Under the pieces are notes generated by a model. It did no database searches, was not told where the DNA came from, and saw only the letters and a list, made by a program, of their open reading frames with translations. The position numbers and the translations under genes were made by a program. A stretch of 32,000 nt of DNA from Trichodesmium erythraeum IMS101. GTDB lineage: Bacteria; Cyanobacteriota; Cyanobacteriia; Cyanobacteriales; Microcoleaceae. Shown piece after piece: positions 4,731 to 32,000 of the stretch (positions are counted from its first letter, which is position 1; the number at the start of each line of letters is the position of its first letter). The stretch is taken from assembly GCF_000014265.1 (NCBI RefSeq), contig NC_008312.1, positions 2,250,001 to 2,282,000 of the forward strand, read 5' to 3'.

Positions 4731-4734
4731 GTAA

Positions 4735-10810: not shown

Positions 10811-12151
10811 TTACTCGAATTTAAAATAATTAGCTTTATATACTCTTAGACCTTTTTCAGAATTAATTTTTTGCGCAACATCATCCAGATTAGGATGTCT
10901 CCCGTGAAGTATTTTTACAGTTCCACATACAAAAAATGGGAAAGGAAATCGACAATTATATTCTGCTGTTAAAGTAGCTATTCTCAATTGACTATTAAAT
11001 AATGCTTCTCTAAAACTAGGTTGATCTGGTTCTCCTGACTTATATAATTTTACCCAATATTCAAAAAACTTTTTCACTTCTGGAGACTTCTTAAATAAAA
11101 TGACTCCTGTATTCATTTGTTGATAACATTCTGGCACTCCATTAACAATACCCGGTATTTTTGTTGGAGCATGAACTGCTGCAATATCAAAATTATCTAA
11201 GATAGCAAATAACTCGGAAAAATCTTCACATATATAAGTATCAGTATCCAGAAATAAAGTGTATTCATAAGGAGAATCATACATATAAACTACTTTATCT
11301 TCAAAGCTATAATATGACTTCTTTACTACCACAGATTTATCAAATTCTTGCTCATTAACTTCTTGATTAGCAAAAATTGTGACTGGAATATTCGGCATTT
11401 TAGCTTTTAAACTTGCTGCAGAAATCTTTGCTTCCTCAATATATTTCTTACCCATTGCTATGTAAACTACCCCTAGAGCTTGGGGGGGATGAAATTGCAA
11501 TTTCACTGAAGCCAGAGGAACAATAGTTTTATCTTTAAGAACAGCTCTAATCGTCAAATCTGCTGTGGTTTTTTGTGGCATTCCAGCTATTCCTAATTCG
11601 GCTACAAAACCACATTTTTTAGCTTTTGGTAATTTTTGATAATGTTTAGCTACACCTAGTCGCTGTTTTCTAATCAAAGCCTGATTAATTACCCGCTCGT
11701 CTTTAACTATTTCTATTTTCATAGCTGGAGATTTTTTCCCTAAAACCCAACCAATTATTTCTATGACATAACTATTAAATTTATCTCCTTTTTGCGGTAA
11801 ATCTATATTGAATCCCCACAGGTAAGCGTCCACAGGTTCTAAAATAATATCTATTATTTCTACAATGGAATTTTCAACTGTTTGAGAACATCTTGTCATA
11901 TTTTTACTTTTAAGCTTTTTCGGTATAATTTCTTGAGTGGTAGGAACAATAGGTGATTGTGCTACTCTCGGTTCCTGATTTTTTTTAAATTCTTCTACCC
12001 ACTTACCAAGTTTATTAGAATATTCTTCTAATACTTGTTTATGTTTATTTATTTGAGAAGAATATTGTGTCAATAGAGCCTTTTTATCCCCTAGTTTAAC
12101 AGGTAATTCTGGCAAATTTTTCTGATTTTTTTGATATTTTTTTTTATCCAA
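10811..12151 (-). CDS. 'GW' module fused to a GT-A-fold (GT8 / nucleotide-diphospho-sugar transferase-like) glycosyltransferase
   Basis: 446-aa ORF. aa ~95-220 'GFNIDLPQKGDKF...IIGWVLGKKSP'. The C-terminal half has 'VVYIAMGKKY', a DxD motif 'FLDTDTYICEDF' and 'NTGVILFKKS'. Confidence 0.75.
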   Translation of the reverse strand: MDKKKYQKNQKNLPELPVKLGDKKALLTQYSSQINKHKQVLEEYSNKLGKWVEEFKKNQEPRVAQSPIVPTTQEIIPKKLKSKNMTRCSQTVENSIVEIIDIILEPVDAYLWGFNIDLPQKGDKFNSYVIEIIGWVLGKKSPAMKIEIVKDERVINQALIRKQRLGVAKHYQKLPKAKKCGFVAELGIAGMPQKTTADLTIRAVLKDKTIVPLASVKLQFHPPQALGVVYIAMGKKYIEEAKISAASLKAKMPNIPVTIFANQEVNEQEFDKSVVVKKSYYSFEDKVVYMYDSPYEYTLFLDTDTYICEDFSELFAILDNFDIAAVHAPTKIPGIVNGVPECYQQMNTGVILFKKSPEVKKFFEYWVKLYKSGEPDQPSFREALFNSQLRIATLTAEYNCRFPFPFFVCGTVKILHGRHPNLDDVAQKINSEKGLRVYKANYFKFE

Positions 12152-14822: not shown

Positions 14823-17800
14823 ATGAGAGAAATGAATTCTTTATCATCACTTAATTCAGAAACTCCAACCCAATACTTCCAACAAGGCCAACAAGCTGTA
14901 GCAGCAGGCCAACTAGAAAAAGCTGTTACTCTCTACAAAAAGACTATCGAACTGAATCCTAACTTGGCCTTGTATCAGCAAAATTTAGGAGATGTTCTAG
15001 CTAAAATAGGTAAATGGGAAGAAGCAGCTACAGTCTATCAAAAAGCGATAGAACTAAAACCTACTTCTGCATTATCTCATTACAACTTGGGAAATGTCCA
15101 AGAAAAACAAGGTCAGTTGGAACAAGCGATCGCTTCTTATTCCCAGGCCATTAAGATTAATCCTAATTTCTCAGAATTATACATTAGTTTGGGATCAGCC
15201 TTAGTCCAGAAAGGGTTACTTTATGAAGCGATCGCCAATTTCCAAAAGGCTATATCCCTAGAACCTGAATCTAGTATTGCCCATCAAAACTTAGGAGTGG
15301 CTTTAGAAAAACAAGGTCAGATTGAAGAAGGGATAATCTGTTATCGCAAAGCTATTGAAATTGACCCTGGCTTCTGGGAAGGATACCAAAAGTTAGGAAT
15401 AGCCTTGACAAAACAGGGAGAATTCCATCAAGCTGCCAAAATTTATTTAAAGGCTTGTCAAATAATTCCTAATTCTGCTACGGTTTATCATCATTATGGG
15501 GAAACTCTGGCCAAATTGCGTCGGTGGGATGAGGCTATTGCTGCTTATCGTCAAGCAATAAAACTTGAAGCAAATTCCCCCGTTATTTATCATCAATTTG
15601 GATATGTTCTAACCCAAAAACAACAATGGGAAGAAGCTATATCTGCTTATCGCCAGGCAATCAAAATTAAACCAAACTCCCCAGATGTTTATCACCATCT
15701 TGGTGACGCTCTGACTCAACAGCAAAATTGGGAAGAAGCTGTAGGAGCTTACCGCAAAGTAACGGAACTCCAGCCCAATTCCCCAGAAGTTTATCATTAT
15801 TTCGGATATGCCCTCTCTCAACTCCAACAATGGGAGGAAGCTATAGTTGCTTACCGCAAAGCTTCTGAACTTCAACCTAACTCTCCAGATGTGCATCATC
15901 AGTTAGGCCATGCTTTGATTGAATTGAAACAAAATGATTGGGCCGTCGTAGAACTCCGCCAGGCCGTGGAACTTAATCCTAACTTAGCTGAAGCTTACAG
16001 GGACTTGGGCAGAGCTTTGAGTAATATTAAGCAGTGGGATGAGGCGATCGCTTCTTTCCAAGGTGCCATTGAACTTAATCCTAACTTAGCTGAAGTATAT
16101 GGTTATTTAGGGAAAGCTTATGCCTCACAAAAACAGTGGGATGAAGCTATTGTTAATTATGGCCATGCTCTAAAACTTAACCCCAAGTTGCCGGAAGTTC
16201 ATCATAATCTAGCTTTAACTTTGGTGCAGCAACAAAAATTTGATGATGCTATTGTCAGTTATGGTCAAGCTATTGAACTAGGTATTAATACAGCAGAAAT
16301 TCACCATCAGTTAGGTCATACCTTGAGTAAACTGAAACGGTGGGATGAGGCAGTTATCAGTTATCGCCAGGCAGCAGAAATTAATCCTAATTCGGCCGCA
16401 GTTTATCATGTCCTGGGGGAAAGTCTGGCTCAACTAGAAAAGTGGGATGAAGCTGTGGCTGCTTATACTAAAGCTAGTCAACTTCACCCTAAATCTGCTG
16501 ATGTGAGGTACCATATTGGGGAAGTTATGTCAAGATTAGGTAGATGGGATGAAGCAGTGGAAGCTTATGGGAAAGCTGTAGAATTAAGACCATCATCGGC
16601 AAAGTTTCATTTTCAGTTAGGGGAAGCTAAGACTAAAAAAAATCCATTAACTGAAGCAATAAGTTGTTATCGTCGTGCTTTAGAAATAGACCCTCATTTT
16701 TCTAAGGCTAAGAAAAAATTAGAAGAAGTTTCATCATTTCAAAATGTCCTGAGAACAGGGGAACTTGGTAGCCTAAGTTTGTTAGGAGAAACAGAATTTG
16801 AAGGTTGTCTTGATTATGCCACTATCGACTATGTTTCTGGTTGGGCAAGACATAAAAAAGATCCTGAAAAAGTTGTATTTCTTGATATTTTTGTCGGCAA
16901 TAATTTAGTTGGTACATTAGTCGCAAATAAATATCGTCAAGATTTAGCAGAAGCTTTTGATACTCACGGATATCATGCTTTTGCTCATAAAATTCCTCCA
17001 TCTTTACATAGTAATGGTTTAGTTGAAGTTAGTGTCAAAATAACAGAAACAGGTCAACAACTAAAAAATTCTCCTAAACCATTAGTAGTCGGACCAAAAG
17101 GTCAAAAACATGAAATTAATCTCAGTTTTAATCAGGGAGAAATTAATAAACTTATCTATCGCCTTCAAAAGGTAAAAACTCAGAAGTTAAAATTCACAAG
17201 TCAGATACCACCAGCAAAAATTCAGACAGAAAAACCAGCAGTAGCAGTAATTATTTTGAGTTTGAATGGAGCAAAACTATTAAAAGAGTTATTTGCTTCC
17301 TTTGAAATTTACAACAGCTATGAAAATTTTGAATTAATAGTAGTAGACCACGGGTCAATAGATAATACTATTGATGTTTGTAACCAGTGGTCAGAAAAAT
17401 TACCAATTACAATTATTGCCAGGGGAGATAATTATTCTTTTTCCAACTCAAATAATGTGGGAGTGAACCAAACAAAAGCTCCTTTATTGCTATTTATGAA
17501 TAATGATATTACTTTTTGCCAAGACATTATTCCCCAGATGGTTGATTTAATTCAAGCAGATGAAAATCTAGGAATGGTAGGAGTAAAATTATTAGATATA
17601 GTCAGCGATCGCTCCTTAGCTTTTCCTCCTACTCAACATTTAGGAGTACAGTTATATTTCCACAGTCAAAATGAGCCTTTTTATCCTTATGAAGTTCGAT
17701 ATGCTCCTCAATTATTAAAAGTACAATCTGCTCCTTGGAAAGTGCCTGTTGTTACTGGAGCATTAATGATGTGTCGGCGTGAAGATTTTCAGAAAGTTGG

Positions 17801-20045
17801 AGGTTTTAATGAAGACTATTTTTATGGTTATGAAGATGTAGATTTATGTTTAACTATCCAACAAAAACTAGGCAAAGAAATTATCAGCGCTAATCATTTA
17901 ACAGCTTTTCATAATCGAGGTTTTTCTCGGTTTAATAAAGGGAAAGAATTTGTCAATAAAATCTTGAAAAATCGCCCAATAATTGAAGAAAGGTTTGCTT
18001 ATTATTTGCGTCGAAAACATCTACAAGATTTCTTTGAAAAAGGAATGTATTGGACTGGGCATCCTTTAACTATTGGATTTGCTGTAACCGAAGCAGATAT
18101 GGCAGCTTCCGCAGGAGATTATTTCACAGCGGTGGAATTAGGAGAACAATTAGTTAAAGAATTCGGATGGGATGTTTATTATATTTCTGAAGGAGAAGAT
18201 TGGTATGATATGACACGATTAGATGTAATTGTAGTTATGCGCCATGATTATGATTTAGAAAGAATAGAAAATGCTAAACCAAGTTTAGTAAAAGTGGCTT
18301 GGGCAAGAAATTGGTTTGAGATTTGGGCTTCTCAAAAATCAGCAGGAGATTATGATTGTTTCTGGTGTTCTTCTCAAAAATCAGCTGATTATATTCAGCA
18401 GAAATTATTTAAGCCAGTAACAGTAGTTAGAATAGCAACTAATGATGAACGTTTTTATCAGGAGGGCAGAAGTCAAGAAGGAGTTAATTCTGAAGTTAAA
18501 AGTCAAAATTCAAAAGTTACAAGTTTAGACAATAATTCTGAAGTAGCAATTTTTGAACAAACGGAAAAAGTTAATTCAGAATTAGAGAATAAGTATAAAT
18601 CTGACTATTGTTTCACAGGAAGTTTCTGGAAATATCCACGGGATATTATGAGTTTTTTGAAACCAGATAATTTACCTTTTGAGTTTGCTTTGTATGGATA
18701 TAATTGGGAAAAATTTGATAAGTTTAAAAAGTATAATCGGGGACCTTTTCCTTATACAGATATGCCTCAAATTTATGCTTCGACAAAAATAGTAATTGAT
18801 GATGCAAATTCAGTTACAAAACAATGGGGTTCCACAAATTCTAGGGTATTTGATGCTATTATTTCTGGTGCATTAGTTATTACTAATAGCGAGCTGGGAA
18901 ATCAAGAATCTTTCGACGGACTATTACCTACTTATAATTCCCGCGAATCTCTGGAAAATTTATTACGAGAGTATCTAACAAATGAGGAGTTAAGATTAGC
19001 CAAAGTGGCAGAGTTACAGAAAATAGTCAAAGAAAAACATACTTATAAACATCGCGCTTATACAGTATTTTCTACCTTGCGCGAAAAAATGAGTAATAGT
19101 TTCCGCATCAGTATAAAAATTGGAGTTCCTGACTGGAAACAGGCGCAAGAATGGGGAGACTATCATTTTGCTTTAGCTATGAAACGGCAATTTGAAATTA
19201 ATGGTCATTCCGTCAGAATTGATATTTTGCCAGAGTGGGAAACTCCCGAAGCATTTGGAGATGATGTGGCAATTACTATCCGTGGTTTAAGTCGTTATCA
19301 ACCTAAGTCTTATCATATTAATTTGATGTGGAATATTAGTCATCCAGATAAAGTATCTCTGGAAGAATATGAGGAATATGACCAAGTATTTGTGGCATCT
19401 AATTCTTATGCTAAAGAGTTACAAAAACAAGTGAAAGTTCCGGTAAAAACTTTGCTCCAATGTACAGATCCAAGTTTGTTTTACCCTGATAAAGAAGGTT
19501 ATGAAGAAGTAGGAGAAATTTTGTTTGTGGGAAATTCTCGAAAAGTTTACCGTCAGATAGTAAAAGATGCAGTTGAGAGTGGTTTAAAGATAGATGTTTA
19601 TGGTACAAACTGGGGTAATTTATTGCCTGATGGTTATTTAAAAGGAGAATATATTCCCAATGAAATTTTACGACGTTATTACAGTAAGTCTGGCGTGTTA
19701 TTAAATGACCATTGGAATACTATGAGAGAAAAAGGGTTTATTTCAAATCGTTTATTTGATGCTGCTGCTTGTGGGGCAACAATTGTATCTGACAAAATTT
19801 CAGGTTTAGAAGAGGTATTTGGAGATCAAATTTCTACTTATAATTCTGGGGAAGATTTGCCAAAAGTAGTAGAATATTGTTTGCAGCAAAAAAGTCATAA
19901 TTCAGGAGAAGAATTAGAGTTAGCAAAGTATGTTCAAGAAAATCATAGTTTTGAGAAAAGGGTCTGGGAAATCTTAGGAACTATTGAGAGGTTGAATGAA
20001 GAAAAAATGTTGGGTAAGTTCATAAAATCAGAAGCAGCAATCTAG
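14823..20045 (+). CDS. Giant multidomain protein: ~18 TPR repeats, 'GW' module, GT2 glycosyltransferase, two CgeB-like (Glyco_trans_1_2-type) domains
   Basis: 1740-aa ORF. A 34-aa periodicity runs over aa ~15-628 ('WEEAIxAYRQAIxLxPNSPxVYHxLG'). aa ~657-755 'IDYVSGWARH...YRQDLAEAF'. The GT2 region has 'AVAVIILSLNG', 'LIVVDHGSIDNT', 'LFMNNDITF' and 'GYEDVDLCL'. 'STNSRVFDAIISGALVITNS' and 'ISNRLFDAAACGATIVSDK' mark two CgeB-like C-terminal glycosyltransferase folds. Confidence 0.85.
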   Translation: MREMNSLSSLNSETPTQYFQQGQQAVAAGQLEKAVTLYKKTIELNPNLALYQQNLGDVLAKIGKWEEAATVYQKAIELKPTSALSHYNLGNVQEKQGQLEQAIASYSQAIKINPNFSELYISLGSALVQKGLLYEAIANFQKAISLEPESSIAHQNLGVALEKQGQIEEGIICYRKAIEIDPGFWEGYQKLGIALTKQGEFHQAAKIYLKACQIIPNSATVYHHYGETLAKLRRWDEAIAAYRQAIKLEANSPVIYHQFGYVLTQKQQWEEAISAYRQAIKIKPNSPDVYHHLGDALTQQQNWEEAVGAYRKVTELQPNSPEVYHYFGYALSQLQQWEEAIVAYRKASELQPNSPDVHHQLGHALIELKQNDWAVVELRQAVELNPNLAEAYRDLGRALSNIKQWDEAIASFQGAIELNPNLAEVYGYLGKAYASQKQWDEAIVNYGHALKLNPKLPEVHHNLALTLVQQQKFDDAIVSYGQAIELGINTAEIHHQLGHTLSKLKRWDEAVISYRQAAEINPNSAAVYHVLGESLAQLEKWDEAVAAYTKASQLHPKSADVRYHIGEVMSRLGRWDEAVEAYGKAVELRPSSAKFHFQLGEAKTKKNPLTEAISCYRRALEIDPHFSKAKKKLEEVSSFQNVLRTGELGSLSLLGETEFEGCLDYATIDYVSGWARHKKDPEKVVFLDIFVGNNLVGTLVANKYRQDLAEAFDTHGYHAFAHKIPPSLHSNGLVEVSVKITETGQQLKNSPKPLVVGPKGQKHEINLSFNQGEINKLIYRLQKVKTQKLKFTSQIPPAKIQTEKPAVAVIILSLNGAKLLKELFASFEIYNSYENFELIVVDHGSIDNTIDVCNQWSEKLPITIIARGDNYSFSNSNNVGVNQTKAPLLLFMNNDITFCQDIIPQMVDLIQADENLGMVGVKLLDIVSDRSLAFPPTQHLGVQLYFHSQNEPFYPYEVRYAPQLLKVQSAPWKVPVVTGALMMCRREDFQKVGGFNEDYFYGYEDVDLCLTIQQKLGKEIISANHLTAFHNRGFSRFNKGKEFVNKILKNRPIIEERFAYYLRRKHLQDFFEKGMYWTGHPLTIGFAVTEADMAASAGDYFTAVELGEQLVKEFGWDVYYISEGEDWYDMTRLDVIVVMRHDYDLERIENAKPSLVKVAWARNWFEIWASQKSAGDYDCFWCSSQKSADYIQQKLFKPVTVVRIATNDERFYQEGRSQEGVNSEVKSQNSKVTSLDNNSEVAIFEQTEKVNSELENKYKSDYCFTGSFWKYPRDIMSFLKPDNLPFEFALYGYNWEKFDKFKKYNRGPFPYTDMPQIYASTKIVIDDANSVTKQWGSTNSRVFDAIISGALVITNSELGNQESFDGLLPTYNSRESLENLLREYLTNEELRLAKVAELQKIVKEKHTYKHRAYTVFSTLREKMSNSFRISIKIGVPDWKQAQEWGDYHFALAMKRQFEINGHSVRIDILPEWETPEAFGDDVAITIRGLSRYQPKSYHINLMWNISHPDKVSLEEYEEYDQVFVASNSYAKELQKQVKVPVKTLLQCTDPSLFYPDKEGYEEVGEILFVGNSRKVYRQIVKDAVESGLKIDVYGTNWGNLLPDGYLKGEYIPNEILRRYYSKSGVLLNDHWNTMREKGFISNRLFDAAACGATIVSDKISGLEEVFGDQISTYNSGEDLPKVVEYCLQQKSHNSGEELELAKYVQENHSFEKRVWEILGTIERLNEEKMLGKFIKSEAAI

Positions 20046-20595: not shown

Positions 20596-21160
20596 ATGAC
20601 AGCTATAACCATCAAATTTAACAATATTCTCAGACTAACTGATGACCAATTCTATCAATTATGTCGAGATAATCCCGAAATTAAATTTGAACGTAATATC
20701 AGGGGGGAAATAACAATTATGTCGCCCACAGGAGGAGAAATAGGAAAACAAAATGCTTCTATTATTGCTGATTTTGTAATATGGAACCGTCAAACAAAAC
20801 TAGGAATAGTGATTCGACTCTTCGACCTGTTTCAAACTTCCCAATAATTCTAATCGTTCTCCCGATGTATCCTGGGTTAAATTAGAAAGATGGAATCAAT
20901 TAACTCCCCAACAAAGAGAAAAATTTCCTCCTATTGCCCCAGATTTTGTATTAGAATTAATGTCACCATCTGATAGTTTAAAGGATGTTCAAAATAAAAT
21001 GCTGGAATATATGGATGGAGGAGTAAAATTAGGCTGGCTAATTGATAATAAAAATCATCGTGTGGAAATTTATCGTCAAGGAAAAGAAGTAGAAATACTA
21101 GATTTTCCCACAAATTTATTAGGGGAAGATGTATTACCTGGTTTGATATTAGAGCTTTAG
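20596..21160 (+). pseudogene. Uma2-family (DUF820) putative endonuclease with a single frameshift near 20811
   Basis: ORF 20596..20847 gives '...ITIMSPTGGEIGKQNA...'. After a +1 shift the reading continues as 'FDSSTCFKLPNNSNRSPDVSWVKLERW...PPIAPDFVLELMSPSDS', which joins ORF 20960..21160 ('VKLGWLIDNKNHRVEIYRQGKE'). This is the typical Uma2 layout. Confidence 0.7.
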
Positions 21161-22167: not shown

Positions 22168-25125
22168 TTAATTCAAATCCTTTTTTATACGTTCAAAAAT
22201 ATTTTCGTATGGTTCTCTCTTAAATAAACTGGTTTGTAGTTCGAGAAAATCTGAATACTCTAAGCGACTAATAGTTTCTAAGCAATTCCATTTAGGTCTA
22301 AAATTTTCTCTCCACTTACTCCATACAACTGTTTGACCATGATGGGGAAAGTGAGCAAAACTATACTGAGGGAAAAAATCATGAATAGCTGCAATAACTT
22401 TAAAGACATCACCCATCCAGCTTTTATTTTTTTCCCCCGAAACCTTTTTTAAAGATATGCAACGTTGATGTGATGATTGAGCTTGAGCATAGCTTCCAGG
22501 AAAAGTATCATCAATTAGCCAGATAGTCTTTAAATGTGAGCAAGCAATAGATGCACAAAAGTCACGAAAACTTTGTTCAAAGGTGTGAAGACCGTCTAAG
22601 TAAATAAGGTCAAATGGAGTATATTCCTGAGCGTAATTCCTAAAAAAATCATCACTAGCAACTTCAAGAAAATTAATATTTTCAGTAGCATATTCGCCTG
22701 TATTAAACTGAAATTTTGGATCTACAGCTACTTTAGATTTGATATTAATTGCATTAAAGGTTTTACCTTCAGATACACCTATTTCTAGATATCTAAATGA
22801 TTCATTTATAGTAGCAAGTTGGTTAAGACGACCATCTCTGGTTGTAATCTCTTTACTTTCAAAAATATTAGAAATGGAGTTATCTTTTAATGTAGTTCGC
22901 ATCTTTAAATACTTTTCTTTTACAGCCAAACAATAAACTTTATTTTGATTCTTTAATAACTTAGATCCTCTATCTATATAGGCCATTACATCAGAATTTT
23001 CTTGAGCTAAGAAATCATCTTCTCTCCAGTTTTCTAAGATAGCAAAATTTTGGTTTCTCAGAGATTCAACTATTTGAAAAGGATTTTTGGCTATGGAAAT
23101 TGAATATGGCGCATCTTTAGTATTATAAGCTCCTAATCTCATAGCATTATCTACACCCCCAGCTATAATATAATTTGAACACTTATTATAAATATGTGGA
23201 TAAAAATTAACGTTATTTCCTCTTCTGGGAATACATACAATATCTGCCTCTAAATAACTCAGAAACTCTAACAGATATATAGCACTTCCTTCCACAAATA
23301 TAATTTTTTTTGCACTTATTAAATAAGATAACTGTTCTAGAATATTGTAATTTTCCGGCTGGATAGAAACATAACCCTCATTCAACAAACAATTCTCCAA
23401 ATATTTTTCCCCAGCTACTCCCCCACGAAGCAAAATATGAGACCTACCAAAAAAGAGTTTTAAATCTTGTTTCTCTTTTCTAAGTTGATTAGTCATCTCC
23501 AAAATTCTCTGCTGTAGTCTCTCTAGATATGAGCAATACCATTCCTTGACTCCTACTGACAGCTCGCTACCTGGTTCTGGAATAATCAAATTTTCAAAAG
23601 TGCAGTTATATATCACAAAAATGCACTTTTCAAGAGAAATGTTGAAAATTTTTAAGATTTGAATTAACCATTGAGGAGGATTAAATGAAGCTGAATTGCT
23701 CCCTACAGGTAAAGCAAAAACTAAACCATCATGTAATTTGGGATTGAATGCCCAAATGCGATGGATACTTTCTGTGAGAACATGTCCAAAATGAAATATT
23801 AAAGGTCCTGCATAAATGTATGTACCTTGATAAAAATTTGAACTATAGGTTTGATTTTTACTATTATCAATGACATTTACTTCTTTGGAATTATCGACAA
23901 TTTCTGGTCTATCTATGTATATAGGTTCATTTTTACCTACTAATTTCCCTGAGCGTCGATGACGAAAAACTCCAGGCATATTCTCTGGAAAACAAACACC
24001 TCCCATCCATTCGTAATTGCTCTTAATTTCAATTGGTTTAACAACTGCATTGTTAATTTTGAATAATCGGGATTCGTCACTATAATCTATCTGTTCTTTA
24101 TTTGTCTTAGATAGTTCTTGAATTTTTTGATGAGCTTCTTGACAGCTAGAGTCTATAGATATTATCTTTTGGTATAAAAAACCAGATGGCTGTGTTTTTT
24201 TTGCAGTTTGTTGAACTTGGTGTAACTCAAATTTAGTCTGTTCTAACTCTTTCTGATTACTATCTAGTTGGGACAAAGACTCTTCCAATGTTGCCATTGT
24301 CTCCTCCAACTGAGACTGATATTTCTCCAACAATTCCTCAGTCTCTCGCCACTGAGACTTAGTTTCCTCTAACTCTTTGTGCAACTCTGACTCTACTCCC
24401 AACTGCTTCTCTGCTAACTCCCCCTTAACCTGCTCCAGCTCTTCATGCTTCTGCTGCAACTTCCCTTGGGACTCCTCCAATGCCCCCATGGTCTGCTCCA
24501 TTTGAGACTTATACTCCTCTAACACTCCCATCATTTCACCTAACTGGGACTGGGACTCCTCTAGCAATTGTTCAGTCTCCTGCAACTTGGCCTTAGTTTC
24601 TGCCAACTCCTGCTTAACTTGTCCATTGGCTTCAGATTGATGTTGCTGTCCTTTTTCTTTGAACTGATGTAACTCAAAGTGGGTTTGCTCCAACTCTCCC
24701 AATACCTCATCTAATTGAGATTGCGATCGCTCCAACTCTTCCCTCACATCATGGAACTCTGACTTAGTTTTGTCCAACTTTTGCTGAGTTTCTTGCCATT
24801 TGGCCTTAAATTCTTCTGTTTCTTTTTGAGACTGGGACTCCTGCAACAACTTTTCTGTCTCCTGCAACTTGGCCTTAGTTTCTGCCAACTCCTGCTTAAC
24901 TTGTCCATTGGCTTCAGATTGATGTTGCTGTCCTTTTTCTTTGAACTGATGTAACTCAAAGTGGGTTTGCTCCAACTCTCCCAATACCTCATCTAATTGA
25001 GATTGCGATCGCTCCAACTCCTCCCTTACATCATGCAACTCTGACTTAGTTTTGTCCAACTCTTCCTGAGTTTGTTGCCACTTGACTTTAGTTTCCTCTA
25101 ATTCTTTTTCTATTGCTATTACCAT
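22168..25125 (-). CDS. N-terminal ~320-aa coiled coil + GT61/DUF563-like glycosyltransferase + C-terminal class I SAM methyltransferase (Methyltransf_24-like)
   Basis: 985-aa ORF. The E/Q/K/L-rich heptad-like N-terminus contains a 94-aa duplication. 'YIYAGPLIFHFGHVLTESIHRIWAF' and 'ISAKKIIFVEGSAIYLLEF' fit GT61. 'FRYLEIGVSEGKTF' and 'FDLIYLDGLHTFEQSFRDF...IWLIDD' are methyltransferase motifs. Confidence 0.8.
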   Translation of the reverse strand: MVIAIEKELEETKVKWQQTQEELDKTKSELHDVREELERSQSQLDEVLGELEQTHFELHQFKEKGQQHQSEANGQVKQELAETKAKLQETEKLLQESQSQKETEEFKAKWQETQQKLDKTKSEFHDVREELERSQSQLDEVLGELEQTHFELHQFKEKGQQHQSEANGQVKQELAETKAKLQETEQLLEESQSQLGEMMGVLEEYKSQMEQTMGALEESQGKLQQKHEELEQVKGELAEKQLGVESELHKELEETKSQWRETEELLEKYQSQLEETMATLEESLSQLDSNQKELEQTKFELHQVQQTAKKTQPSGFLYQKIISIDSSCQEAHQKIQELSKTNKEQIDYSDESRLFKINNAVVKPIEIKSNYEWMGGVCFPENMPGVFRHRRSGKLVGKNEPIYIDRPEIVDNSKEVNVIDNSKNQTYSSNFYQGTYIYAGPLIFHFGHVLTESIHRIWAFNPKLHDGLVFALPVGSNSASFNPPQWLIQILKIFNISLEKCIFVIYNCTFENLIIPEPGSELSVGVKEWYCSYLERLQQRILEMTNQLRKEKQDLKLFFGRSHILLRGGVAGEKYLENCLLNEGYVSIQPENYNILEQLSYLISAKKIIFVEGSAIYLLEFLSYLEADIVCIPRRGNNVNFYPHIYNKCSNYIIAGGVDNAMRLGAYNTKDAPYSISIAKNPFQIVESLRNQNFAILENWREDDFLAQENSDVMAYIDRGSKLLKNQNKVYCLAVKEKYLKMRTTLKDNSISNIFESKEITTRDGRLNQLATINESFRYLEIGVSEGKTFNAINIKSKVAVDPKFQFNTGEYATENINFLEVASDDFFRNYAQEYTPFDLIYLDGLHTFEQSFRDFCASIACSHLKTIWLIDDTFPGSYAQAQSSHQRCISLKKVSGEKNKSWMGDVFKVIAAIHDFFPQYSFAHFPHHGQTVVWSKWRENFRPKWNCLETISRLEYSDFLELQTSLFKREPYENIFERIKKDLN
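24548..25111. repeat. Two tandem copies of a 282-bp unit (94 aa) inside the coiled-coil region of 22168..25125
   Basis: Anchor 'gtctcctgcaacttggccttagtttctgcc' occurs at 24575 and 24857. Long stretches are identical, including the HIP1 sites at 24723 and 25005. Confidence 0.9.
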
Positions 25126-25782
25126 TAACTTATTTTCCTTTAATTATTAATATAAATCAAACTATAATCTAGTCGATAAAATAAAATTTACTATCACCAT
25201 TCTTGATTTTACTCCAACTTGTTTGAAATCATCCTATATTTTTCAAAAAATACACTATTCCTCTAAATCAAGCTTTTATTTATTCTCAGTTAATTAGAGA
25301 CTTATTCTCTTTTCTCAAGACAATTGGTTTTGAACCCATAGGTAAATATTCTCACCTATGATTTAACCATACCTATCAAAAATTTACTTTCGTCTGCTAA
25401 CCAAGCTTGTAATAATCACTAATCAGTTTATAGCAACTCCAATAAATCCATAATTACGACAAAACTACTTTTTTTACCTCTGCAACATCTGAATAAATCC
25501 AATCCAAATATGTAGGTAATTCATCAAGATAAACCTTTTATAAAATCCTTTCATTATTAACATAATTATAACTTAACAACCATATTTTTTACCTATTATC
25601 CTACAAAAAAAGTCTATTTCTGAACCATCAAGATTATTTTATTACTAAGATTTTTCAAAACCATAACCGAATAATAATTCACAATCATCAGGTTCAACTC
25701 TAACTATATCTAATATCTTTATTTTTAGTAATTTTTATATTTTAACCATAGTTAAATTTAATTAATTCTGTCTTCTAGAAAC

Positions 25783-28700
25783 TTATTTATCATTACTTAC
25801 CAAAACCTTTTGTTGAATTCTCATAGTGCGTTTCATCAGATTTTGCCATTCTTCATAACTTGTAAGTTTTTCACTATCAAACTCTAGACCTTTTTCCTGA
25901 AAGAAATTAGCAAACCTATCTAACCAATCCATAACTACTTCTGTGCGAGAAATTTCTGTATATTTCAAGGACTTCTGAAGGCGCTCTTGCATCTCAGCTA
26001 AATTATTATTTTGATAAGCATACCATGCTTCCCATACTAACAATTTATATTCTGTTTTACCCTCTGATTTTAAATCTCTCAAAATAGCTTGCTGATATTG
26101 CAATTTCTCTAACTCCGACTTGGTTTCTATTAGTTGAGACTTAGTTCCTACTAATTCTTTCTGCACATTTTGTTGTTGAGATTGGGACTGTTGCAATAAT
26201 ATTTCTGTTTTCCGCCATTGAGTCTGAATTTCTTGCAATACTGCCTGAGTTTCTTGTAGCTGTATTTGCATATTTTCCCGTTCTTCATCAGTTTGATGTA
26301 GTTGAGTTTTAAACTCTATTAATAAGGATTTTGTTTGTTGTGATTGAGAATTAGATTTTTGCAAGAGTGTTTCTGTCTGCTGAAGTTGAGAATTAGACTC
26401 TACTAATTCTGTTTTTGTCTGCTGAAGTTGAGAGTTAGACTCTACTAATTCTGTTTTTGTCTGCTGAAGTTGAGAATTAGACTCTACTAATTCTGTTTTT
26501 GTCTGCTGAAGTTGAGAATTAGACTCTACTAATTCTGTTTTTGTCTGCTGAAGTTGAGAATTAGACTCTACTAATTCTGTTTTTGTCTGCTGAAGTTGAG
26601 AATTAGACTCTACTAATTCTGTTTTTGTCTGCTGAAGTTGAGAATTAGACTCTACTAATTCTGTTTTTGTCTGCTGAAGTTGAGAATTAGACTCTACTAA
26701 TTCTGTTTTTGTCTGCTGAAGTTGAGAATTAGACTCTACTAACTCTATTTGAAGTTCTTGATTTTGTAGTTGCGATCGCTTCAACTCTTGTTTAGTTTTA
26801 TGTAACTCAGACTTTGATATTTCCCATTTGTTTTGACTTTTTTGAATTTCTTTTAATTCTGCTTCTGACTTTTCCCATCTTGTTTCTTTGTCTTTTAGTT
26901 GAGAATTAGATTCTGTTAAATCTGCTTGAGTTTGATTCAGTTGAGATTGAATTTGTTGTAATTCTTGGTGAGTTTTTTGCAAGTCAGATCCAGACCTTTC
27001 TAATTCTAGTTTAATCTTTTCTAGCTCAGAATTAGATTCTGTTAACTCTGCCTCTTTTGCCTGCAATATTGCCTCAGTTTCTGTTAACTTAGACTGAGTT
27101 TGCTGTTTTTGTTCTTCAGCCTGTTTTAGCTGAGATTGATTTTTTTCTACTTCTTGGTGAGTTTTTTGTAAGTCAGATCCAGACCTTTCTAATTCTAGTT
27201 TAATCTTTTCTAGCTCAGAATTAGATTCTGTTAACTCTGCCTCTTTTGCCTGCAATATTGCCTCAGTTTCTGTTAACTTAGACTGAGTTTGCTGTTTTTG
27301 TTCTGTAGCCTGTTTTAGCTGAGAGTGATATTCTTCCAACAGAACCTCAGTTCCTGCTAACTGAGACTGATATTTTTCCCACTCTTCCTGACTTTGATGT
27401 AGCTGATATTTATAAATGAATAATTCACCTTTACTTTCCGACAAATTCTGTCTTGTTACTCCTAATTCTATCTGAGTTCGTTGAAGTTGTGAATAAGTAT
27501 CTTCTAATGCTTTTTCTGCATCTTGTAAATCTTGCTGATATTTTTTTAAAACTACCTCTTTTGCTACTAATTGTGATTGAGAAGATTCCCAAAATTCTTG
27601 AGTTTTGTGTAGCTGATTTTGGCTAGTTTTTAATTTAATTTTAGTCTCGTACAGACTATGTTTTGTTTGTCCTAATTCCGCTTGATTTTGTTTATCTTGA
27701 AATTTAAATTTATCCAATAATTCTTCATTAGTTTCTAGCTGAAATTTCAATTCTTTCCATGCTAATTCTGCTTCCTGAAGTTTACATATATTTTTTTCTA
27801 ATTCTTCTAGATTTTGATGCAATTGTGACTGATATTGTACTAATTCCCCTTGAGTTTCATCTAGCTTAGATTGTGTTTCTAGCAACTCTTTTTGTGTCCC
27901 TTGATATTTTTGTAATTCACCTTCTTTTTCCTTTAGCTCTGACTGACATTGTATGAGTTCAGTTTTAGTTTCATTTAACTGGGATTTAGCAGTAGCTAAT
28001 TCATTTTTAGTTTGGTCAAATTTAGTTTGAATCTGTTGAACTTTTTGAAACTCATCCTGTGTTTTTTCTAATACTTTTTCTTTGTTGTGGAGTTGTTGTT
28101 GAGATTCTGATAATTTCGCCTCTGTACCATTTAGTTGAGAAACATATTTTTCTAAATCATCTTGTGTTTTTGTCAACTGAGACTTTACTTCTGTTAACTC
28201 TAACTGACTTTTTTCGTATACTTTTTCTTTGTTGTGGAGTTGTTGTTGAGATTCTGATAATTTCGCCTCTGTACCATTTAGTTGAGAAACATATTTTTCT
28301 AAATCATCTTGTGTTTTTGTCAACTGAGACTTTACTTCTGTTAACTCTAACTGACTTTTTTCGTATACTTTTTCTTTGTTGTGGAGTTGTTGTTGAGATT
28401 CTGATAATTTCGCCTCTGTACCATCTAGTTGAGTAATATATTTTTCTAACTCATCTTGTATTTGTATTAACTGAGACTTTACTTCTGTTAATTCTAACTG
28501 ACTTTTTTCGTCTTGATTTTTATACTTTTCTAGTTCTACTAGCAGAATTTTATTTTGTTTTCCTAAGCTCGATAAATTCATCCAATCTTGAAATGCCCAA
28601 TTTCTATAGGGAGATGATTTAATTTTTTCTTGCCAAGAAAAGTCTAGTGTTTCATCTTCTGCTTTCCATGATCTTGCTTCTAACTCCTGATACATTTCTA

Positions 28701-29412
28701 TAGCTTCAGGAAAGTAATAATCTATGATAGTAGGTCTATGACTTTCTGTTGATACTCGATTATTAAATAATAATGGATCATAATTATTTACAACAGGATA
28801 ATTAAAATTTGTCTTAAATTTTTGATTTATTTTTTCGATAAATACTTCTTGACTATTAATTATTGTTTGAATATTTGTCAACAGGCAACGATCAGCAGCA
28901 TAATTATAAAAATCAATAATTTTTTGGTTGTAGTGTAACCATAATTTTATGGCTAGTTCTGGCTGGTTTTGAAATATCTGATATTGCTGATTATACAGAG
29001 AATTAACTACTTCCCAAGGAGACCGATAAATCAATATAAATTTAGCATTTGGTAGTAGGTATGACCAAAAATCTAGGAATAAAGTTGTCCGGGGTTCTTT
29101 CCATCCCCAATTTTCACTTATTGAGTTTTTGGCAATAATTTCTCTAGCTTTTTCTTGAAAGCTTTCTTCTACATCTATTTTTTCTTGTAAAGTCCACCCA
29201 TCCTCATCTATACCTTGGGATTGTAATACATTTTTATGAAATTCATAGAAGTCTAAATTTTCAAAATCTCCTTTAGTATTGTATTCATTTCCCTTCATTA
29301 ATTTCCGGCCTATGTGCAAACCTGCACTTTGGAGGATAGAAGCTGTTAAGGAACTTCCCGAACGGTGCATACTGCTAATAATTAGAGTTGATTTTTCTGT
29401 TCTATGCATCAT
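25783..29412 (-). CDS. N-terminal P-loop sulfotransferase domain followed by a ~800-aa coiled coil built from nested tandem repeats
   Basis: 1209-aa ORF. 'LIISSMHRSGSSLTASIL', 'WGWKEPRTTLFLDFW' and 'FILIYRSPWEVVNSL' are sulfotransferase motifs. The rest is Q/E/K/L/S/T-rich with repeat families of 14, 49 and 63 aa. The short C-terminal tail is non-repetitive. Confidence 0.85.
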   Translation of the reverse strand: MMHRTEKSTLIISSMHRSGSSLTASILQSAGLHIGRKLMKGNEYNTKGDFENLDFYEFHKNVLQSQGIDEDGWTLQEKIDVEESFQEKAREIIAKNSISENWGWKEPRTTLFLDFWSYLLPNAKFILIYRSPWEVVNSLYNQQYQIFQNQPELAIKLWLHYNQKIIDFYNYAADRCLLTNIQTIINSQEVFIEKINQKFKTNFNYPVVNNYDPLLFNNRVSTESHRPTIIDYYFPEAIEMYQELEARSWKAEDETLDFSWQEKIKSSPYRNWAFQDWMNLSSLGKQNKILLVELEKYKNQDEKSQLELTEVKSQLIQIQDELEKYITQLDGTEAKLSESQQQLHNKEKVYEKSQLELTEVKSQLTKTQDDLEKYVSQLNGTEAKLSESQQQLHNKEKVYEKSQLELTEVKSQLTKTQDDLEKYVSQLNGTEAKLSESQQQLHNKEKVLEKTQDEFQKVQQIQTKFDQTKNELATAKSQLNETKTELIQCQSELKEKEGELQKYQGTQKELLETQSKLDETQGELVQYQSQLHQNLEELEKNICKLQEAELAWKELKFQLETNEELLDKFKFQDKQNQAELGQTKHSLYETKIKLKTSQNQLHKTQEFWESSQSQLVAKEVVLKKYQQDLQDAEKALEDTYSQLQRTQIELGVTRQNLSESKGELFIYKYQLHQSQEEWEKYQSQLAGTEVLLEEYHSQLKQATEQKQQTQSKLTETEAILQAKEAELTESNSELEKIKLELERSGSDLQKTHQEVEKNQSQLKQAEEQKQQTQSKLTETEAILQAKEAELTESNSELEKIKLELERSGSDLQKTHQELQQIQSQLNQTQADLTESNSQLKDKETRWEKSEAELKEIQKSQNKWEISKSELHKTKQELKRSQLQNQELQIELVESNSQLQQTKTELVESNSQLQQTKTELVESNSQLQQTKTELVESNSQLQQTKTELVESNSQLQQTKTELVESNSQLQQTKTELVESNSQLQQTKTELVESNSQLQQTKTELVESNSQLQQTETLLQKSNSQSQQTKSLLIEFKTQLHQTDEERENMQIQLQETQAVLQEIQTQWRKTEILLQQSQSQQQNVQKELVGTKSQLIETKSELEKLQYQQAILRDLKSEGKTEYKLLVWEAWYAYQNNNLAEMQERLQKSLKYTEISRTEVVMDWLDRFANFFQEKGLEFDSEKLTSYEEWQNLMKRTMRIQQKVLVSNDK
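26377..26754. repeat. 42-bp tandem array, 8 near-identical copies plus 1 diverged terminal copy (14-aa unit LVESNSQLQQTKTE)
   Basis: Unit ctgctgaagttgagaattagactctactaattctgtttttgt tiles exactly from 26377 in 42-nt steps. The only substitution in copies 1-8 is A>G in copy 2. A degenerate copy lies at 26335..26376. Confidence 0.95.
26964..27325. repeat. Two tandem copies of a 189-bp unit (63 aa)
   Basis: Anchor 'cttggtgagttttttg(c/t)aagtcagatccagacc' occurs at 26964 and 27153. The copies are nearly identical over ~170 nt. Confidence 0.9.
28073..28513. repeat. Three tandem copies of a 147-bp unit (49 aa)
   Basis: Anchor 'actttttctttgttgtggagttgttgttgag' occurs at 28073, 28220 and 28367. The protein repeat is 'EKSQLELTEVKSQLTKTQDDLEKYVSQLNGTEAKLSESQQQLHNKEKVY'. 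Confidence 0.9.
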
Positions 29413-30693
29413 GTTTATTTTGATTATGTATTGCTGAATATTAGTAAGTACTTACATAAAACCATTTACCTATTCTAATTCTCTGCAATTTTTATAATGC
29501 AAATAATTTCCTTATATAAATGTGTAATTGTAATTAATTTTGTGTACTTACTTATTTAGTATATAATTTAATTTTAACCTTTTTTCAAATAATTAATAAC
29601 CCTTCCATAGCATTCCATAGAAACATAAAGTAATCCCAAGAGTTTGCTTTATTTTTATCTAAGTTAGGTGTTCTATATTTATTTTATCTTGTTACCATTA
29701 TTTATGTATATTTGTCAACCAATTTTAAATTCCCATTTTAGAAAGATATCATACCTCTAAAGGAATATTTCACTAGATCACAACTTACATAAAACCACCT
29801 CTAGAGATGATGTATAATTTTATATGATTACTTAATCCAGATTTATCACATCTTATCGTCAATAGTATATTAATCTGCTACTACTCAAAATCATCAATCA
29901 ATTATATTTTAGGGTAGAAAAATTATTTTTTTTGACAAAAATTAAAGCTAATTAGTTTCCTTCTTTAATCCTAGAAAAATTAAAATTCATGGATTCCTCA
30001 AAAAAAATTTATTACAAAAGTTTGTTATTGTAATTGATGCTTAAAAATGCGTCATATTATTACCTCTTTACCTGCAAATAATCACTCTTTCTTAATTTTA
30101 TACAGAGAAATATTATCCGAGAATTGAGATAGAAAACAGAATTAAATAATAACAACTATATTTATTCTTATGCCCTACTTCAACACAGACATTTCAGACT
30201 AATAAACTAAAATTGGGCCATCTTAATTTGCTTATATCTTAATTCCATCTTTTTGACAAAATCGTTTAAATAAAACATCTTTTTCTCAAGCTATAATCAG
30301 AACAATTAGTTTAATTTTTATGAAACTGGGAACCATAAATACTATTAGCTATAGAATAACTGTAATTAGAATTATGCATATGTTGTCCTGCTTAACATAT
30401 TCTAAATATCCCTTTCTCTCAAATTAAAGCTATTCCTGATACTAGGTGATATTTCGATATAAAATATACGTATCATAATATAACCCTGATTAGATAAAAA
30501 AGGACTGTCATAAAATTTCAGTATATTTTGAGATTAAAGATTATATTGAGCCCCTCAATTTACATAATATAATCACTCAGTTTTTAGCTATATTCTTCAT
30601 ATTATTACTCAGAAAACTATAATTTTTATCTTCCTTTTAGATTATTCTAATTTTGATAATTATCAGAAGTATATAAAATCAACTTGTGGCAAA

Positions 30694-30727
30694 TTATAGA
30701 TAAATTATCTATATAATTTATCTATAA
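30694..30727. repeat. Perfect 14-bp inverted repeat with a 6-nt spacer
   Basis: TTATAGATAAATTA (30694..30707), tctata, TAATTTATCTATAA (30714..30727). Located in the ORF-free AT-rich region. Confidence 0.8.
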
Positions 30728-31237
30728 AATCTATCCTTACCTTTATTACACAACCAAATAATTGACTTAAAACTTTATGGGTAATATTGTTCAGATATAT
30801 TCTGTATTGATATGTTGCTTTAATATTTCCCCTGATTGACCGTACCTATATCATAACATAAATCATATATACGCATTAGAGAAACATCTTAAAAATAATC
30901 AATATAATATAATAACATATGATAATAGCCAGATTAAATTCAGGTAATATGCAATAACACAAGGGAAAATTAAATTTCAAGTAATAGATAATTTGCCAGA
31001 ATTTGTTATCGAATTAACTGAACAATAAAGAATTTTTGTAAGTAATTAAACTCCCTTATAAGAGGGAAGCTTGAAATCCACTTTTTTGGTAAATTTAAAA
31101 ATATTAAACTAAGTATCTGACACAGTATAACATTTATTCTATAATGCTAACTACCTCATATAAATTTCATTTTATCTCAAGCTATTAGCAGAATTAGTCT
31201 GCTCAAGTAGTAGGCATTCTTAACATCCTCCTTAGCT

Positions 31238-31416
31238 GTTAGGTGCGCGGGGCTTCTTGCGAGCCGCATCTCCTGGGGGGTTAACCTTTTGCACTTAGTA
31301 AAACTTCCCACTCTATTGGCTGCTACAATTCTAGTCGCGAGCACGAAACATTACCCTAGTCTTGTGTTTGCCTAATAAGTCCGTTTTTTGTCTGATGACT
31401 GCCCGCTCGCTACTAA
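31238..31416. ncRNA. GC-rich, hairpin-forming island: candidate structured RNA or fragment of an RNA element, unclassified
   Basis: My count gives ~58% G+C over 31241..31300 against ~20% over 31081..31140. A local hairpin at 31251..31265 reads GGCUC-GCAA-GAAGCC on the minus strand, giving a GNRA loop. A long-range 10/11 complement links TAGTCGCGAGC (31332..31342) and GCTCGCTACTA (31405..31415). No tRNA, rRNA, RNase P or tmRNA signature was recognised. Confidence 0.25.
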
Positions 31417-31660
31417 TTAATTAACAGAACTAACATAATGTTTTCAAAAAAAACAACTAAAAAATCGCACGCTTATGGGCGAGGCTTTAAATCTAATTTT
31501 TCGGTAAACAAGTAGTAATTTTGTACCTTACCTCCTGAAAATGGAATGAATTTAGCAACAATATCCTGACATATTTACAACTAGCAAATAGTGTAGAATA
31601 TTATTAATAAGTAATATTATTCCACCCTCAATTATCAAATACAGGAAACTCTATATAACA

Positions 31661-32000
31661 ATGACAACAACAGCAACAGAAACCAGTGTTAACTATCTTC
31701 ATATTGGGAATAAATTATTAAGGCAAGGTAACTTCCCTGAAGCTGCTGATGCTTATCGCCAAGTCATTAAACTTAACCCCAAATCAGCAGTAGGTCATCA
31801 AAACCTAGGAGAAGCTCTCAGTTTACAGGGAAATTTAGAAGAGGCAGCAAATATCTATTATCAAGGAATTCAACTACAGAAAAATTATCCCTGGTCTTAC
31901 TATAATTTAGGAGAAATTCTGATTAAACTTGAGAGGTTTGATGAAGCAGTTATTTATCTACGTCAAGCTATTGAACTTAATCCAGATTTTTCCAATTTTC
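31661..32000 (+). CDS. TPR-repeat protein, 5' partial (runs off the window)
   Basis: From the ATG at 31661 the frame is open to the window end. It reads 'MTTTATETSVNYLHIGNKLLRQGNFPEAADAYRQVIKLNPKSAVGHQNLGEAL...EEAANIYYQGIQL...FDEAVIYLRQAIELNPDF', which are canonical TPR units. It is absent from the ORF track, presumably because no stop codon is reached. Confidence 0.75.
   Translation, partial: MTTTATETSVNYLHIGNKLLRQGNFPEAADAYRQVIKLNPKSAVGHQNLGEALSLQGNLEEAANIYYQGIQLQKNYPWSYYNLGEILIKLERFDEAVIYLRQAIELNPDFSNF

Follow-up and report, generated by a model that had tools for sequence, protein, structure and literature searches.

The 32,000-nucleotide stretch of Trichodesmium erythraeum IMS101 analyzed here (the window; contig NC_008312.1, positions 2,250,001 to 2,282,000) carries two adjacent minus-strand genes, each encoding enzyme domains joined to a long coiled-coil-like rod. 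One product, of 1209 amino acids (aa), combines a sulfotransferase (ST) head, a coiled-coil (CC) stalk and a C-terminal domain (CTD); the other, of 985 aa, combines a coiled coil with a GT61-like glycosyltransferase (GT) domain and a Methyltransf_24 (MT24) methyltransferase (MT) domain. Our preferred interpretation, to which we assign a probability of roughly 0.45, is that the pair is a split, transporter-unlinked derivative of a sulfotransferase terminator-stalk module that acts in the assembly of a sulfated, methylated glycan. Behind it stands a family-level result: judged by protein architecture and by analogy with known systems, cyanobacteria very probably possess a terminator-ruler with a sulfotransferase head.

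Sulfotransferase head, stalk and C-terminal domain of the 1209-aa protein

25783..29412, minus strand: 1209-aa ST-CC-CTD protein, class A of the sulfotransferase-coiled-coil family (open reading frame (ORF) and translation)
28558..29412, minus strand: sulfotransferase head, aa 1-285 (Pfam, motifs, AlphaFold2, fold search)
26128..28557, minus strand: rod A, an 810-aa heptad-periodic coiled-coil-like stalk, aa 286-1095 (Fourier analysis and register tracking)
28062..28511, minus strand: 147-bp tandem repeat, 3.1 copies; the unit of 49 aa equals seven heptads
26942..27336, minus strand: 189-bp tandem repeat, 2.1 copies; the unit of 63 aa equals nine heptads
26368..26750, minus strand: 42-bp tandem repeat, 9.1 copies, 98% identity; the unit of 14 aa, TELVESNSQLQQTK, equals two heptads
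25795..26052, minus strand: CTD core, aa 1121-1206, a five-helix bundle resembling tetratricopeptide repeats (TPR), with a final basic amphipathic helix

The head matched Sulfotransfer_3 (PF13469) over aa 11-168 (E = 1.9e-5, 25.4 bits), slightly below the Pfam cut-off of 27 bits. Its AlphaFold2 model had a predicted local distance difference test score (pLDDT) of 85.7, and when this model was searched against the PDB with Foldseek, the top 20 matches were all sulfotransferases dependent on 3′-phosphoadenosine 5′-phosphosulfate (PAPS), including TPST1/2, the CurM and OLS sulfotransferases, HS 3-OST, NDST and Stf. The best fold matches were tyrosylprotein sulfotransferases (E ~1e-5, TM ~0.45), closely followed by glycan and polyketide sulfotransferases. 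At the sequence level, the head gave marginal TPST and CurM matches only in the PDB (E 0.1-0.4). The HRSGS motif (5′-phosphosulfate loop) and R130-x7-S138 (3′-phosphate motif) were invariant in 19 of 19 aligned relatives, and WGWK(D/E)PRT was a further invariant motif of that alignment. In the model, the HRSGS loop follows strand 8-14 and R130...S138 follows strand 124-129. By its predicted fold and invariant cofactor motifs, the head is a PAPS-type sulfotransferase, with predicted activity. A partial protein recorded for Trichodesmium sp. St16_bin4-tuft matches it at 100% identity; an exact look-up of the 1209-aa product gave no record elsewhere.

Heptad periodicity was assessed by Fourier analysis of hydrophobicity combined with register tracking; a/d occupancy in 28-aa windows was dropped because it failed to separate the rods from TPR repeats. 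The hydrophobicity power of rod A at period 3.5 was well above that of shuffled sequences (z = 11.6), and only 3 register breaks were found in 810 aa. Position a was 89% hydrophobic, with Leu in 91 of 116 heptads, and position d was mostly Thr or Ser (28% hydrophobic). Pro and Gly were nearly absent, and AlphaFold2 returned helix for the modelled segment of the rod (pLDDT 81-86). Rod A is not disorder, yet it does not have the textbook a/d hydrophobic core; its core is unusual. At ~0.148 nm per residue, it would be ~120 nm long if it forms one straight coiled coil. The rods also matched SMC, Rad50, HmpF, DUF745, LegC2C7 and GrpE, matches that we rejected as compositional (scores far below the Pfam and NCBIfam family cut-offs).

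The 42-, 147- and 189-bp tandem repeats of rod A were 95-98% identical at the DNA level. All their units are whole heptads, so that duplication kept the heptad phase. A short-read assembly (L003; L numbers are our handles for comparison sequences) was 168 bp (4 units) shorter at the 42-bp repeat, and other assemblies of the locus showed breaks, scaffold gaps or possible collapse within the repeats; because of this, and because the exact product is unrecorded elsewhere, the exact repeat copy number is that of the present assembly alone. Antisense to the 147-bp repeats lies a 125-aa ORF (28059..28436, plus strand), itself repetitive in sequence, which almost certainly arises from the repeats and is no gene.

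The final ~115 aa form a separate conserved domain (hidden Markov model (HMM) match, E = 2e-36). Its AlphaFold2 model had a pLDDT of 86.6 overall and above 90 in the core, and a fold search against the PDB gave no significant match, weak TPR-like ones only. The last helix had a hydrophobic moment of 0.61 and a net charge of +2. The CTD also follows GT2 catalytic domains directly, in a GT2-CTD protein (L026, 2561..3547) and in a GT2-CTD-GT2-GT2 protein (L074, 4917..8111); both of these genes adjoin ST-CC genes (in Laspinema and in a Synechococcales metagenome-assembled genome). Its sharing between ST-CC and GT2 proteins suggests that the CTD is a docking module for glycosyltransferases. Searches with the CTD HMM showed it to be absent from class D proteins and from the other ORFs of the window.

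An earlier note on this DNA, made from the letters alone, had described a sulfotransferase head of ~280 aa followed by ~800 aa of uninterrupted coiled coil, on the order of 100 nm long. The head was confirmed by fold and motifs, and the note's caveat that it might lack PAPS binding found no support at the level of sequence, where the cofactor motifs were invariant. The rod stands as an 810-aa heptad rod, but it is interrupted by the register breaks, and the terminal TPR-like domain had been overlooked; the length calculated here is ~120 nm, provided that the rod is straight. Disorder of the repeat regions, which the note wished to see checked, is contradicted by the heptad phase, the whole-heptad units and the scarcity of Pro and Gly.

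A sulfotransferase-head family with classes linked to wzm and wzt

The full HMMER scan with the head found 11,328 relatives (E ≤ 0.001), and architecture classes were sorted among the best 150 representatives and 80 genomic loci of these. Sequence comparison places the head in a large cyanobacterial family of four architectures:

Class A: ST-CC-CTD; orthologue group of the window gene, in filamentous Oscillatoriales
Class B: (MT-)ST-CC-amphipathic helix, with a W/F/K/R-rich terminal helix (SKFWKLRxxW); WbdD-like
Class C: ST-CC-GT2, ~1000-1100 aa; WbbB-like
Class D: ST-CC-GT2-GT2-GT4(+/-MT), ~1780-2100 aa; WbbB-like

Heads of classes B, C and D were 40-50% identical to the window head. In 23 of 26 class D loci, wzm closely preceded the class D gene in the same orientation; in 22 of 26, so did a wzt of ~470 aa with a Wzt_C carbohydrate-binding module (CBM). 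Pfam confirmed ABC2_membrane, ABC_tran plus Wzt_C and the class D domain string at L063. At the Hormoscilla class B locus (L044), the order by Pfam was wzm, wzt(Wzt_C), MT-ST-CC-helix, a 456-aa gene and GT2-GT2-GT4. WbdD- or WbbB-like ST proteins were found directly downstream of wzm and wzt(Wzt_C) at L063, L044, L072, L046 and ~40 more loci among L012-L091, in Microcoleus, Tychonema, Nostoc, Hormoscilla, Arthrospira, Limnoraphis and other genera. This arrangement matches the gene order of known terminator-rulers, and it is the reason why we consider the existence of a sulfotransferase terminator-ruler in cyanobacteria so probable.

None of the papers found by literature searches described a sulfotransferase terminator or the ST-CC proteins, in agreement with the earlier note, which knew of no such ruler system. 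The presence of ST heads in WbdD- and WbbB-like proteins behind wzm and wzt-CBM genes is therefore new to the searchable literature; the function of the 120-nm Trichodesmium version is one that we infer.

Class A loci and rod length

Class A orthologues were found in Okeania, Dapis, Microcoleus, Planktothrix, Limnospira and others. Rod length in 137 orthologues had a median of 344 aa and was mostly 300-445 aa; because rods are held at this length in most genera, some constraint on length is indicated. Marine-clade rods were longer (584, 640, 710 and 850 aa), with differences of 8, 10 and 20 heptads and all in one heptad phase. The window rod was the longest among class A orthologues (850 aa in the length comparison). 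The shortest rod, 116 aa in Trichodesmium MAG_R02, belongs to a widespread 475-aa form of the protein seen in a cluster of 74 member sequences. Over all pairs, rod-length differences were divisible by seven in 22-25% vs. 14% expected, a modest enrichment.

A divergent TPR protein was the one neighbour conserved beside class A genes in most genera examined, with 483-534 aa in Dapis, Okeania, Planktothrix, Limnospira and Tychonema. In freshwater lineages, class A genes also neighbour a 361-379-aa GT1-like protein; a WecA-like polyprenol-phosphate sugar-phosphate transferase adjoins in Planktothrix-type loci, and multi-domain ST/MT/GT genes adjoin in other lineages. The next downstream ST/MT/GT-type gene in Trichodesmium, Dapis and Okeania begins with the same conserved coiled-coil N-terminus, followed by varying enzymes. 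In one Okeania locus (L014), a transposase-like ORF lies between the class A gene and this downstream coiled-coil-enzyme gene.

The 985-aa protein

22168..25125, minus strand: 985-aa CC-GT61-MT24 protein (ORF, translation, Pfam)
24151..25125, minus strand: rod B, the N-terminal 325 aa, coiled-coil-like (heptad analysis)
23269..23790, minus strand: GT61-like (DUF563) domain, aa 446-619 (PF04577, 27.1 bits vs. the 27-bit cut-off)
22504..22788, minus strand: Methyltransf_24 domain, aa 780-874 (PF13578, 26.2 bits vs. the 26.3-bit cut-off)

The description of this protein in the earlier note, ~320 aa of coiled coil followed by GT61-like and methyltransferase domains, was borne out, with MT24 0.1 bit under the cut-off. 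Rod B had a z of 9.4 at the heptad period, with position a 84% and position d 47% hydrophobic and 7 register breaks, and it contained a 282-bp unit in 2 copies. Its first ~40 aa were unusually conserved (MxxxIEKELEExKxKWQQTQ.ELDKTKSELHDVREELERS), and this N-terminus was kept across orthologues with rods of 55-360 aa. Orthologues of the protein were annotated as GT61 family or DUF563. LEIGVSEGKT and DLIYLDGLH, read by eye, appear to be motifs of the S-adenosylmethionine-methyltransferase type, so that the methyltransferase is putative; a sequence search of the GT61-MT24 part found no relative in the PDB.

The protein was found unchanged on Trichodesmium contigs, and the GT61-MT24 module was confined to Trichodesmium, Okeania, Dapis and Lyngbya. 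The part that precedes this module varied: nothing, a 55-360-aa coiled coil, TPR plus GT2, or Sulfotransfer_2 plus a ~200-aa coiled coil. The last combination unites Sulfotransfer_2-CC-GT61-MT24 in one chain in Okeania and Trichodesmium. Rods A and B were 30-34% identical over many registers; as evidence of specific pairing these alignments were rejected, being typical of like-styled coiled coils.

Proposed function and alternatives

If our interpretation is correct, the 1209-aa protein would be a derived class A member working like WbdD or WbbB, that is, a chain-end-modifying enzyme held off the polymerising glycosyltransferases by a rigid alpha-helical stalk, at the cytoplasmic membrane face where a polyprenol-linked polysaccharide is assembled. 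The PAPS-dependent sulfotransferase would be placed at the far end of the ~810-aa stalk, the TPR-like CTD at the stalk base would dock to glycosyltransferase partners, and the 985-aa protein would contribute another stalk, of 325 aa, that carries a GT61-like transferase and an O-methyltransferase. Along with the other sulfo-, methyl- and glycosyltransferases encoded around them, both proteins would produce a surface or extracellular glycan that is sulfated and methylated, in which sulfation by the head would be restricted to chains long enough to reach it. Domain identities, heptad periodicity, the architectures within the family and the linkage of paralogous classes to wzm/wzt are observed, and the proposal starts from them. 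From there we infer action of the head on a glycan end, docking of the CTD to glycosyltransferases, a straight and parallel stalk, and control of chain length by stalk length. An extended coiled coil with a terminator at its distal end is the marker of this assembly strategy (PMC11231755); the 1209-aa protein has an enzyme in that place, with putative chain-end action.

A bolder version, which we consider doubtful, is that sulfate would be an undescribed chain-terminating cap, installed by a widespread family of cyanobacterial ST-headed coiled-coil rulers and read by Wzt carbohydrate-binding modules, and that a transporter-unlinked branch in Trichodesmium and its marine relatives, with a ~120-nm stalk grown by heptad-preserving duplication, would determine the length of a very long colony-matrix polysaccharide that is sulfated and methylated.

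Several observations weigh against the reading of the window pair as a terminator-stalk derivative. Neither wzm nor wzt nor Wzt_C was found within 10 kb in any of 17 class A loci or within the 32-kb window. Class A and class D occur together in the genomes of Arthrospira PCC 7345, Microcoleus Pol11C3 and Tychonema LEGE 06208, class D also occurs in other strains of Dapis and Okeania, and it is possible from these co-occurrences that class A proteins use a transporter in trans. The 1209-aa protein has no GT fusion and no class-B W/F/K/R-rich terminal helix (SKFWKLR type); the modelled CTD looks like a protein-binding module in which just the last helix is amphipathic, and the CTD HMM found no CTD-bearing GT2 partner in the window. 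Thr and Ser at position d leave the stability and oligomer state of rod A uncertain, and a straight rod of 120 nm would be approximately six times as long as the ~20-nm rod of WbdD. Class A rods range from 116 to 850 aa among relatives, up to 7-fold within Trichodesmium, and the near-identity of the repeats (92-98%) indicates that the rod expansions are recent. Sulfotransferase domains are present in at least 5 genes of the window and methyltransferase domains in at least 6, so that these marks may decorate the whole chain instead of only capping its end. The earlier note's logic of a capping-type enzyme tethered to a long rod is supported by the architectures found behind wzm and wzt(Wzt_C) elsewhere in the family, but not by the window's own class A gene.

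The leading alternative, somewhat less probable in our view, is that the rods dock or scaffold enzymes and do not control length. The coiled coils would cluster the enzymes encoded in the window, the glycan would be decorated along its whole length, and rod length would drift by repeat slippage, much as golgins and stalk regions organise Golgi enzymes. The extreme variation in rod length (rod A through recent tandem duplications, and rod B orthologues likewise) and the many other ST and MT genes favour this rival; the lack of transporter linkage in class A, the TPR-like nature of the CTD as an interaction module and the shared sequence style of rods A and B, which could co-assemble, are also in its favour. 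However, paralogous heads occupy canonical terminator positions beside wzt-CBM genes, rod length is kept within 300-445 aa in most genera, heptad phase is kept above chance (and in all four marine rods), and the enzyme is always opposite the docking-domain or GT end. Modification directed at a protein, which we consider improbable, would have the head sulfate and the GT61-like domain glycosylate a surface, sheath or pilus protein, with TPR recruiting the substrate as in OGT and SPY and the rods serving as spacers or oligomerisation elements. It keeps its place because tyrosylprotein sulfotransferases are the best fold matches of the head and because of the TPR partners, namely the conserved neighbour in most class A loci examined and the TPR-GT giant of the window; GT61, moreover, includes the protein O-GlcNAc transferase EOGT. 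Those fold matches are weak, however, with the glycan and polyketide enzymes close behind, the other classes combine fusion to GT modules of the GT2/GT4 polymerase type with linkage to wzm/wzt-CBM, and a WecA-like initiating transferase adjoins class A in Planktothrix-type loci.

A cytoskeleton-like filament unrelated to glycan, or a disordered Q/E/K/S/T-rich slippage repeat, would account for the ParA, SMC or myosin-like annotations of orthologues, for the sub-threshold NCBIfam matches to SMC and HmpF and for the near-identity of the repeats in DNA. These cytoskeletal and junk-repeat readings are unlikely, and we give them very little credence: the annotations are compositional, with scores far below the cut-offs; the heptad phase is strict, the repeat units are whole heptads, Pro and Gly are scarce and the modelled segment is helical (pLDDT 81-86); conserved domains, either enzymatic or for docking, invariably border the rods; and a published cyanobacterial survey of coiled-coil-rich proteins makes no mention of such proteins. 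Some slight weight is kept for explanations beyond those named.

To our knowledge, coiled-coil rulers are the only bacterial way to measure a polysaccharide chain before export. A sulfotransferase-headed ruler, if true, would represent a new cap chemistry, would extend the mechanism to cyanobacteria and would offer a genetic handle on both length and sulfation of cyanobacterial sulfated polysaccharides, of ecological interest in the Trichodesmium colony matrix (metal or dust binding) and of applied interest in spirulan-type antivirals. Cyanobacteria are nearly the sole bacteria known to make such polysaccharides (PMC8205485). With rods of 116 to 850 aa, nature already supplies a series in which a link between the lengths of stalk and polymer can be tested. 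If, on the other hand, scaffolding without length control is the role of the rods, the system would be the bacterial equivalent of Golgi enzymes on stalks or tethers.

The glycan-tailoring island

14823..20045, plus strand: 1740-aa protein with ~17 TPR repeats, GT2 and two Glyco_trans_1_2 domains (Pfam)
31661..32000, plus strand: start of a 486-aa TPR protein, divergent from the ST-CC gene (full gene in L001)
45..1889, 1946..3229, 5847..7025, 8640..10496 and 10811..12151, minus strand: genes with a shared domain of ~100 aa
12896..13339 and 14823..20045 (aa ~650-740), plus strand: genes with the same shared domain

Nearly the whole 32-kb window, which has a low GC content (~33%), was an island of cytoplasmic glycan-tailoring genes according to Pfam and NCBIfam, with GT2, GT61 and nucleotide-diphospho-sugar transferase domains in addition to those mentioned. 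Pfam and NCBIfam scans of the window proteins found no membrane or export protein, and no transporter was seen in the neighbouring genes just left and right of the window. Directly to the left is a giant gene for a Sulfotransfer_2-MT-MT-GT2 protein of 2004-2046 aa (L005, 3808..9948), whose length differs among assemblies; these differences suggest that it is another repeat-bearing multi-module protein of the island. To the right are the TPR gene and a gene for a 245-aa protein. The 1740-aa TPR-GT2-GT-GT protein has a syntenic orthologue in Dapis (L012), and on this synteny only it might be a partner or polymerase of the rod proteins.

The divergent ST-CC and TPR genes are separated by a non-coding spacer of 2.25 kb (29413..31660; 24-28% GC) with a GC-rich island at ~31200-31400. 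Conserved short patches were found at ~29553-29740, 31087-31209 and 31528-31661, and Dapis and Okeania have spacers of 1.2-2.5 kb at the same place. Rfam gave no match in the spacer, and promoter and terminator scans of the flanks gave nothing usable.

The ~100-aa domain is common to seven otherwise unlike sulfo-, methyl- and glycosyltransferase proteins of the island (consensus IxGWVLGKKxPxVxVE...RPGVxKxxP...GF). It had no match in Pfam or NCBIfam and no sequence match in the PDB (best E 0.7), and it might serve throughout the pathway to bind a glycan or a partner. One of its carriers, the 392-aa MT24 protein (5847..7025, minus strand), has an end that resembles the start of a GT2-type domain; a 186-aa ORF (4170..4730, minus strand) weakly matches Glyco_tranf_2_4, and between the two lies a 167-aa HTH_32/HTH_23/HTH_33 ORF (4795..5298, plus strand) that resembles a transposase N-terminus. 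The region 4170..7025 may represent one gene split by a mobile-element insertion. At 20596..21160 (plus strand), two short ORFs (83 and 66 aa) are the counterparts of fragments that carry the annotation Uma2 (PF05685) in sister contigs; the intact gene of 187 aa found there on contig L004 indicates that the Uma2-family endonuclease gene of the window is broken.

Comparison with known systems

The caps described as controlling chain length are methyl, methyl-phosphate and Kdo, and a terminal pyruvate, also reported, is not required for length control; in such systems, a module of Wzt reads the cap (PMC11231755). The gene order in E. coli O9a is wzm-wzt-wbdD-wbdA, and K. pneumoniae WbbB is summarised likewise (PMC11231755). 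Like the 1209-aa protein, WbdD (E. coli O9a; K. pneumoniae O3 and O5) has an N-terminal small-group transferase, an extended coiled coil and a C-terminal region for binding a partner or the membrane, a putative role in the window protein, with the polymerase on a separate protein. WbdD is a trimer with a coiled coil of roughly 140 aa, compared with 810 aa in the window rod. The two differ in chemistry, phosphorylation and methylation in WbdD vs. PAPS-dependent sulfation predicted for the window head, and the window protein ends in a TPR-like bundle instead of a W/F/K/R-rich helix, with no wzm or wzt nearby. Among class B loci, L044 (wzm-wzt(Wzt_C)-terminator-x-GT2/GT2/GT4), for example, reproduces the O9a gene order almost exactly.

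In ORF7 (K. pneumoniae O4, GT137 Kdo), much as proposed for the window protein, a terminator head is combined with a TPR-like bundle and a coiled coil, and the polymerase is on other polypeptides (PMC11231755). The bundle of ORF7 precedes its C-terminal coiled coil, whereas that of the window protein follows the coiled coil, at the C-terminus; no sequence relationship between ORF7 and the window protein was detected.

Synechan, encoded by xss in Synechocystis PCC 6803, resembles our proposal in that cyanobacterial cytoplasmic sulfotransferases act on a lipid-linked glycan. Its assembly is reportedly of the Wzx/Wzy type, with single-domain enzymes. The word "coiled" does not occur in the synechan paper, in which Trichodesmium is described as rich in sulfotransferases (PMC8205485).

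WbbB (K. pneumoniae O12) and ORF6 (O7) have the same order as classes C and D, an N-terminal terminator-type head followed by a coiled coil and GT modules, and we liken them to these classes, which are located behind wzm/wzt-CBM. Their heads are a Kdo transferase or a methyltransferase-kinase, whereas the window head is a predicted sulfotransferase. WbbB and ORF6 are single polypeptides, and in the window head plus stalk and stalk plus GT61-MT24 are encoded by two genes; the Sulfotransfer_2-CC-GT61-MT24 chain of Okeania and Trichodesmium represents a further single-chain version of the WbbB/ORF6 layout.

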